Part shown: positions 53,935 to 54,687 of the stretch, piece after piece | How the letters are laid out: every line of letters begins with the position of its first letter | How positions within the stretch are numbered: position 1 is the first letter of the stretch | Origin: Escherichia coli | GTDB taxonomy: Bacteria > Pseudomonadota > Gammaproteobacteria > Enterobacterales > Enterobacteriaceae | Direction: 5' to 3' (one strand) | Assembly: GCF_024298765.1 (NCBI RefSeq) | Contig: NZ_CP101210.1 | Length of the DNA stretch: 64,000 nucleotides | Made by a program: the position numbers and the translations under genes | Notes under the pieces: generated by a model | The model's input: only the letters and a program-made list of their open reading frames with translations | Databases searched by the model: none | Told to the model about the DNA's origin: nothing

Positions 53935-54687
53935 ATGGCCGTACTGGGATTGCAGGGGGTTCGGGGAGGCGTGGGGACAACAACCATCACCGCCGCATTA
54001 GCCTGGTCATTATAAATGTTGGGAGAAAATGTCCTGGTGGTCGATGCCTGCCCGGACAACTTGTTGCGCCTGTCATTTAACGTTGATTTTACCCACCGTC
54101 AGGGTTGGGCCAGAGCTATGCTGGATGGCCAGGACTGGCGTGACGCCGGGTTGCGCTATACCTCGCAGCTCGATTTGCTGCCTTTTGGTCAGTTATCCAT
54201 TGAAGAACAAGAAAATCCACAGCACTGGCAAACCCGGCTGAGCGATATTTGCACCGGCTTACAGCAACTAAAAGCCAGCGGGCGTTACCAGTGGATTTTA
54301 ATTGACTTACCGCGTGATGCCTCGCAGATAACCCACCAGCTGCTGAGTTTGTGCGATCACTCGCTGGCAATCGTCAATGTGGATGCCAACTGCCATATCC
54401 GACTGCATCAGCAAGCGCTGCCGGATGGTGCACATATTTTGATTAATGACTTCCGTATTGGCAGCCAGGTTCAGGACGATATTTACCAGCTTTGGTTGCA
54501 AAGCCAGCGCCGATTGCTGCCGATGCTCATTCATCGTGATGAAGCGATGGCTGAATGTCTGGCAGCTAAGCAACCAGTCGGTGAATTTCGCAGTGATGCG
54601 CTGGCGGCTGAAGAAATACTGACGCTGGCGAACTGGTGCCTGTTGAACTATTCCGGGCTGAAAACGCCAGTCGGGAGTGCATCATGA
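53935..54687 (+). pseudogene. bcsQ: bcsQ interrupted by an in-frame TAA at codon 27 (54013-54015)
   Basis: ATG at 53935 encodes MAVLGLQGVRGGVGTTTITAALAWSL then TAA; same frame continues MLGENVLVVDACPDNLL to 54687 (ORF-track 223-aa ORF). Confidence 0.8.

Follow-up and report, generated by a model that had tools for sequence, protein, structure and literature searches.

A nonsense codon at position 27 of bcsQ in Escherichia coli of the ST117 complex: a probable loss-of-function allele of the cellulose system

The bcs locus and the stop codon in bcsQ

The stretch of Escherichia coli DNA analyzed here (64,000 nucleotides of contig NZ_CP101210.1, in the following called the window) contains the cellulose genes in the order bcsR-bcsQ-bcsA-bcsB-bcsZ-bcsC, divergent from bcsEFG, which is the operon context expected for bcsQ. 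The first gene of the bcsRQABZC operon, bcsR (yhjR; 53735..53923, + strand), encodes the partner of BcsQ and is intact with 62 codons and no internal stop; its product in identical genomes is WP_001063315.1. It is followed by bcsQ (53935..54687, + strand), which consists of 250 codons and a TGA with one nonsense codon inside and is a pseudogene according to its translation, a base-by-base comparison and the annotation by PGAP. The gene for the catalytic subunit of cellulose synthase, bcsA (54684..57302, + strand), is intact with 872 codons and possesses its own Shine-Dalgarno sequence (−6.9 kcal/mol); its ATG overlaps the TGA of bcsQ (ATGA at 54684-54687). Further downstream, bcsB, bcsZ and the portion of bcsC that lies in the window, namely its first 1,084 codons (together 57313..63998, + strand), are free of internal stops. 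The divergent bcsEFG operon (50027..53462, − strand) comprises bcsG (50027-51706), bcsF (51703-51894) and bcsE (51891-53462), all of them intact. Hence, no internal stop was found in bcsR, bcsA, bcsB, bcsZ, the visible bcsC, bcsE, bcsF or bcsG of the window, and all bcs genes of the window other than bcsQ are annotated as intact in identical genomes.

Two further features of the window lie upstream of this locus. Between yhjV and bcsG there are four tandem genes for Ldr type I toxins (48384-49940, + strand), each encoding 35 amino acids and repeated with a period of 483 bp, where K-12 possesses a single ldrD. The number of Ldr copies varies among near-identical ST117 genomes, as several of them span 25,480 bp where the window spans 25,000 bp. 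As the span of 25,480 bp is found in carriers of TAA as well as of CAA at codon 27 of bcsQ, the size of this array appears to change repeatedly. Between eptB and dppA, an IS3-family element whose transposase contains a programmed frameshift (approximately 38636-39891, + strand) directly follows the tRNA-Pro(CGG) gene proK (38463-38539), with the whole feature spanning 38463-39891 (+ strand). In strain CT282 the same copy of this element abuts feoC and the match to the window begins only at 38,566, which suggests a large rearrangement mediated by the IS element in that strain.

Translation of 53935-54687 on the + strand yields MAVLGLQGVRGGVGTTTITAALAWSL, then a stop, and then MLGENVLVVD and the remaining sequence up to the TGA at 54685-54687. 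The stop is a TAA at codon 27 (54013..54015, + strand), and the codon directly 3′ of it is an ATG (54016-54018; TAAATG). This is exactly the reading and the position given in an earlier note on this DNA that was made from the letters alone. A base-by-base comparison with the intact bcsQ of APEC O2-211 and RM14723, the product of which is WP_000279544.1 with 250 amino acids, revealed a sole difference, namely a C>T transition at 54013 (nt 79 of bcsQ) that converts CAA (Gln27) into TAA. The supposition of the earlier note that a glutamine codon had been lost here is borne out by this comparison. A single substitution relative to the nearest intact alleles is what a recent nonsense pseudogene should exhibit, and the uninterrupted frame required of a functional BcsQ is broken at codon 27. 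This allele is referred to as Q27* in the following. Compared to bcsQ of K-12 MG1655, which contains TAG at codon 6 and CAA at codon 27, the allele of the window differs at 19 positions and has TTG at codon 6. The K-12-type lesion is thus absent from the window, and as stop codons and positions are different (codon 6 in K-12, codon 27 here) the two lesions are independent. This agrees with the earlier note, which had placed the TTG-to-TAG change of K-12 at codon 6 and had set it apart from the one observed here. Deamination at a Dcm hotspot was considered for the origin of the transition and discarded, as the mutated C is outside a Dcm site; the nearest CCTGG (54002-54006) is located 7 nt upstream.

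When codon 27 is repaired, the encoded protein matches the Pfam family PF06564 (CBP_BcsQ) with an E-value of 5e-114, its residues 1-236 aligning to model positions 1-234 of 234. It is furthermore near-identical to the crystallized BcsQ over all 250 residues (E = 2e-167) with all motifs present, and the BcsQ chains of the PDB entries 6YBU, 6YAR and 6YBB comprise residues 1-250 with Gln at position 27. Pfam families of the MinD- and ParA-type likewise align from residues 5-9 of the repaired protein. The profile match that includes the N-terminus and the deviant Walker A motif (GxRGGxGTTT) identify the gene product as BcsQ. In the window this motif, the P-loop GVRGGVGTTT, is encoded by codons 8-17 (53956..53985, + strand), upstream of the stop, and is therefore cut off from the rest of the protein. 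BcsQ is a MinD-like ATPase of the SIMIBI superfamily (signal recognition particle, MinD, BioD) that belongs to the E. coli-type cellulose secretion system, and the residues R10, T16 and T17 of its Walker A motif bind ATP or hold the pocket; cellulose secretion needs the binding of ATP and the ATP-sandwich dimerization of BcsQ, and an R10E exchange lowers calcofluor binding (PMC7840130). Unlike the structurally characterized BcsQ (6YBU, 6YAR; PF06564), the protein encoded in the window ends at residue 26, so that the Walker A motif and the fold are not part of one chain.

It might be argued that Met28 is the true start of bcsQ, that the 26 codons upstream are noncoding and that the stop is consequently harmless, as the stop is directly followed by an ATG from which gene callers predict an ORF of 223 amino acids. 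However, position 1 of the Pfam BcsQ model aligns to residue 1, the functional crystallized protein comprises residues 1-250 with its Walker A motif within residues 8-17, Shine-Dalgarno pairing is −2.2 kcal/mol at Met28 and −7.1 kcal/mol at the native start, and the frame is open through codon 27 in about 5,200 other genomes. A start at Met28 is thus hardly conceivable, and the orthologues beginning at the downstream methionine, which the earlier note had regarded as fatal to its own reading, did not turn up: both the Pfam family and the PDB chains begin at residue 1.

Occurrence, lineage and origin of the allele

The exact 57-mer centered on the T at nt 79 is present in 16 of 5,228 complete-genome records, which represent 15 strains (strain E166 is included twice). 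Chickens and other birds, dogs, human patients and wastewater in several countries were the sources of these carriers. Over 1,166 bp, 13 complete genomes match the window with 100% identity, and the RefSeq annotation by PGAP lists bcsQ of the strains 104 and CT282 as a pseudogene with an "internal stop". Among public assemblies, indexed in 480 blocks, the exact ORF of 223 amino acids that begins at Met28 is called on 351 contigs. Of 25 such contigs that were read, 23 have TAA at codon 27 and match the window without any difference over 6.7 kb. The number of 351 contigs is accordingly an upper bound for Q27*; as judged from the 25 contigs read, about nine tenths of them are true carriers. The other two consist of one start-codon lesion and one contig edge with adapter sequence. 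In the former (ENA ERZ15610015) the start codon of bcsQ is changed from ATG to ATA, codon 27 is CAA and the haplotype exhibits 58 mismatches over 6.7 kb; as this independent lesion removes the native start, gene callers report the same ORF of 223 amino acids. The latter (GCA_006231785.1, SQAZ01000217.1) opens with a Nextera transposase adapter, ATGTGTATAAGAGACAG, which is fused inside bcsQ. On the same contig, bcsA is called as two ORFs of 538 and 337 amino acids, so that a lesion of bcsA or an assembly problem appears possible.

The allele is thus reproduced in independent genomes. Single-base assembly errors do happen, so that a true C at nt 79 and an intact bcsQ might be considered. As the T is common to 15 strains sequenced independently in unrelated laboratories and to most of approximately 350 further public contigs, and as the site (TTA[T]AAATG) is outside any homopolymer, the sequencing or assembly error that the earlier note had named as a possible refutation is effectively refuted.

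A stop codon that is present in the genome could be bypassed by read-through or by an ochre suppressor at a frequency sufficient for a working cellulose system. Apart from the low level of read-through that takes place at every stop codon, nothing specific favors this idea for Q27*. The sequence of the window contains no evident recoding signal. UAA, which both release factors recognize, is the stop codon with the least leakage in E. coli, and wild isolates generally harbor natural ochre suppressors only rarely. A bypass of this kind is therefore considered very unlikely.

The carriers of Q27* belong to the ST117 complex. The carrier 14EC020 was typed as ST117, O24:H4 (PMC6206212), and the carrier APEC E12049 as O78:H4, phylogroup F (in the older scheme) and ST11749 (PMC10740950). 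APEC O2-211, a neighbor with CAA at codon 27, is also ST117 (PMC6256689) and was grouped together with APEC E12049 in the rpoB sequence type RST21-1 (PMC10740950). About 71-77 complete genomes are at least 99% identical to the window over 25-kb segments, and the 16 records with TAA therefore represent about a fifth of the ST117-type complete-genome records. In two segments of 25 kb each, one around bcsQ and one upstream, genomes with TAA and genomes with CAA alike exhibit 0-3 mismatches to the window, which are too few SNPs for a tree. The CAA genome KKo009, for example, differs from the window by approximately 1 mismatch in 25 kb, which is the nt 79 site itself. A perfect match to the upstream 25 kb of the window was not found in any complete genome. 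The nearly invariant flanks and the otherwise unchanged haplotype show that the lesion is recent. Moreover, with the haplotype being almost invariant and the other bcs genes being intact, Q27* is the first lesion to have affected the cellulose pathway in this background.

With regard to the origin of Q27*, every TAA allele seen is located on one haplotype (in 13 genomes over 1,166 bp and in 23 of 25 contigs over 6.7 kb). In addition, the upstream segment is found at about 235-239 kb in the assemblies of eight carriers, while it is located at approximately 150, 186-189, 210 and 219 kb in the CAA genomes listed. If the assemblies share a start point, this common offset suggests a structural feature shared by the carriers. 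These points are indirect, as the flanks are too poor in SNPs to resolve a clonal expansion in a tree, and they favor a single origin with subsequent clonal spread, which we infer as the probable history of the allele. It would alternatively be imaginable that Q27* arose several times, either at a mutational hotspot or under strong selection. The carriers do differ in their O antigens (O24:H4 and O78:H4) and in the copy number of the LDR genes, and bcs genes are repeatedly hit in E. coli, with the closest CAA genome, RM14723, having a frameshifted bcsA. However, O-antigen switching and changes in LDR copy number recur within lineages. The single haplotype of all TAA alleles seen, the offset of approximately 235-239 kb that eight carriers share and that is absent from the CAA genomes listed, and the position of the mutated C outside any Dcm site argue against recurrence, which we accordingly consider unlikely.

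Predicted consequences for BcsQ and for bcsA

Translation from the native start of Q27* would end after 26 residues, which provide strand β1 and the Walker A loop but no further part of the fold. Such a peptide is predicted to be unable to fold. A restart at Met28 would, in turn, lead to a product lacking strand β1, the P-loop and most of helix α1. The absence of the P-loop from a restarted product had already been anticipated in the earlier note and is in line with the location of R10, T16 and T17 upstream of the stop. Neither of the two routes, the 26-residue peptide or the product from Met28, would thus be expected to yield a functional BcsQ. BcsR and BcsQ have been shown to be essential for cellulose secretion and to affect the detectable levels of BcsA (PMC7840130). 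As BcsQ is needed for secretion as well as for normal BcsA levels, the carriers are predicted to be cellulose-negative despite their other bcs genes being intact, and cellulose production is most likely switched off in them. Altogether, we regard it as highly probable that Q27* (CAA>TAA) is a real, inherited loss-of-function variant of bcsQ which circulates in a sub-lineage of the ST117 complex and the carriers of which would not produce cellulose. A literature search on ST117 and cellulose yielded no report of Congo red or calcofluor staining for the carriers and nothing specific for this allele.

The ORF that remains downstream of the stop (54016..54687, + strand; 223 codons from Met28) directly abuts the TAA and could give rise to a product without P-loop by re-initiation at low efficiency. 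The calculated pairing to the anti-Shine-Dalgarno sequence amounts to −2.2 kcal/mol at Met28, and to −7.1 and −6.9 kcal/mol at the native bcsQ start and at bcsA, respectively. As there is almost no Shine-Dalgarno pairing at Met28, de novo initiation at this codon should be poor. Where a stop directly abuts an ATG, terminating ribosomes may nevertheless restart, as was argued for a natural nonsense allele of yedQ (PMC4287979). A more far-reaching interpretation would combine these elements: Q27* would mark one internationally spread ST117 sub-clone in which the loss of cellulose was selected in the way demonstrated for ST95, a restart at Met28 would preserve the expression of bcsA to bcsC, and Q27* would be a non-polar separation-of-function allele. 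In this case, the TAA-ATG restart would keep ribosomes on the message, the BcsQ fragment without P-loop might retain some binding to a partner (BcsR or BcsE), and the allele would not represent simple decay. As a whole, this combination appears improbable to us. For Q27* as such, a selective advantage may be supposed.

A second ATG inside bcsQ (54029, + strand) is out of frame and is preceded by GGGAG (54021-54025) at a distance of 3 nt; it opens an ORF of 70 codons that spans to 54241. This ORF is probably incidental, although it could capture ribosomes in the Q27* background.

Considering Q27* as a loss-of-function allele, it can be asked by which route the phenotype would arise. Cellulose might be lost mainly through polarity on bcsA, either by Rho-dependent termination over 670 nt of untranslated bcsQ or by a loss of translational coupling at the ATGA. 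Several features fit with this idea: the stop of bcsQ overlaps the start of bcsA, Met28 is devoid of a Shine-Dalgarno sequence, and a scan of the C/G ratio in windows of 78 nt, which is mostly near or below 1 in bcsQ after the stop, peaks at 1.47 in a mildly C-rich and G-poor stretch at about 54159-54236. For the K-12 lesion, too, polarity was raised as a possibility (PMC5944007). On the other hand, the ATG abuts the stop in Q27*, a layout in which restart by coupling is considered likely (compare yedQ, PMC4287979), and the out-of-frame ATG at 54029 has GGGAG upstream. Moreover, bcsA is preceded by a good Shine-Dalgarno sequence of its own (−6.9 kcal/mol), and with 167 C and 186 G the C/G ratio of the whole stretch after the stop is less than 1. 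From the C/G scan, Rho-dependent polarity is hence possible and not strongly predicted. Polarity of Q27* on bcsA, which the earlier note had suggested, is plausible; as the main cause of the loss of cellulose, it is a possibility to be taken seriously, albeit not the one we favor. In any case, polarity bears on the route to the phenotype and not on the loss of BcsQ; at most, it would make the defect more severe. In the original paper on bcsQ of K-12, Serra et al. are said to have reported polarity on bcsA in 2013.

Relation to the K-12 allele and to published bcs losses

The repair of the K-12 bcsQ codon in strain AR3110 is reportedly the work of Serra et al. in 2013. K-12 is cellulose-negative owing to the TAG at codon 6 of bcsQ, and changing this TAG to TTG, as in AR3110, restores cellulose, as documented by the Hengge and Ghigo laboratories (PMC5014196, PMC7397504, PMC5944007). 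Q27* resembles the K-12 allele in that a single base brings about a premature stop, located before or inside the P-loop region, while the rest of the operon is intact. The two alleles differ in the affected codon (6 in K-12, 27 in the window), in the type of stop (amber TAG, ochre TAA) and in the underlying substitution (T>A, C>T). They also belong to different backgrounds, K-12 being a member of phylogroup A and the lineage of the window belonging to the ST117 complex in phylogroup F/G. In addition, only the allele of the window, unlike that of K-12, has an ATG directly after the stop. An amber stop is suppressible in supE laboratory strains, whereas an ochre stop is not.

Losses of cellulose genes are common among E. 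coli clones. A survey published in 2024 in Nature Communications identified truncating mutations of bcsQ, bcsA, bcsB, bcsC, bcsE and bcsG in 74 of 76 common sequence types, clustered by clone, with convergent bcs truncations in ST95 including BcsQ Q178* (PMC10881479). In ST95, the repair of a bcsA frameshift lowered virulence (PMC10881479); this link to virulence refers to that frameshift only and not to ST117 or to bcsQ. According to the source data of the same survey, the bcs genes are disrupted in 51% of the ST117 strains, and Supplementary Data 3 gives, for 100 ST117 genomes, a truncated bcsQ alone in 8% and together with bcsB in 3%, which amounts to about 11% (PMC10881479). Although no codon is given there, these rows likely represent Q27*. 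With its truncating mutation, the allele of the window fits well with the pattern of convergent bcs loss in extraintestinal pathogenic E. coli, although Q27* is not named in the survey (PMC10881479). Q27* thus adds a further example to the recurrent inactivation of bcs genes in individual lineages of these pathogens.

Cellulose is a major component of the E. coli biofilm matrix, and ST117 is a leading avian pathogenic lineage which also infects humans. A bcsQ null allele in about a fifth of the complete ST117-type genomes therefore matters for the choice of strains and for work on biofilms and virulence, and the T at nt 79 could serve as a marker of the clade. The current understanding is not changed by Q27*, as events of this kind and how often they occur in ST117 have already been published and the pseudogene is annotated in RefSeq; the exact allele is not named in the papers searched.

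Two additional lesions of the cellulose system were noticed in the course of these comparisons. RM14723 (NZ_CP027103.1), which is the closest genome with an intact bcsQ and is one base off over 1,166 bp, has a bcsA annotated as "frameshifted"; with this frameshift, the cellulose system has been hit independently for a second time in one and the same haplotype group. Furthermore, a truncated form of BcsQ with 218 amino acids, beginning with MSWWSACPDN, is present on 341 public contigs, those of E. coli HVH isolates being one example. Its start codon is the out-of-frame ATG that corresponds to 54029, and it subsequently returns to the frame of bcsQ, which indicates a frameshift allele of bcsQ in another lineage.
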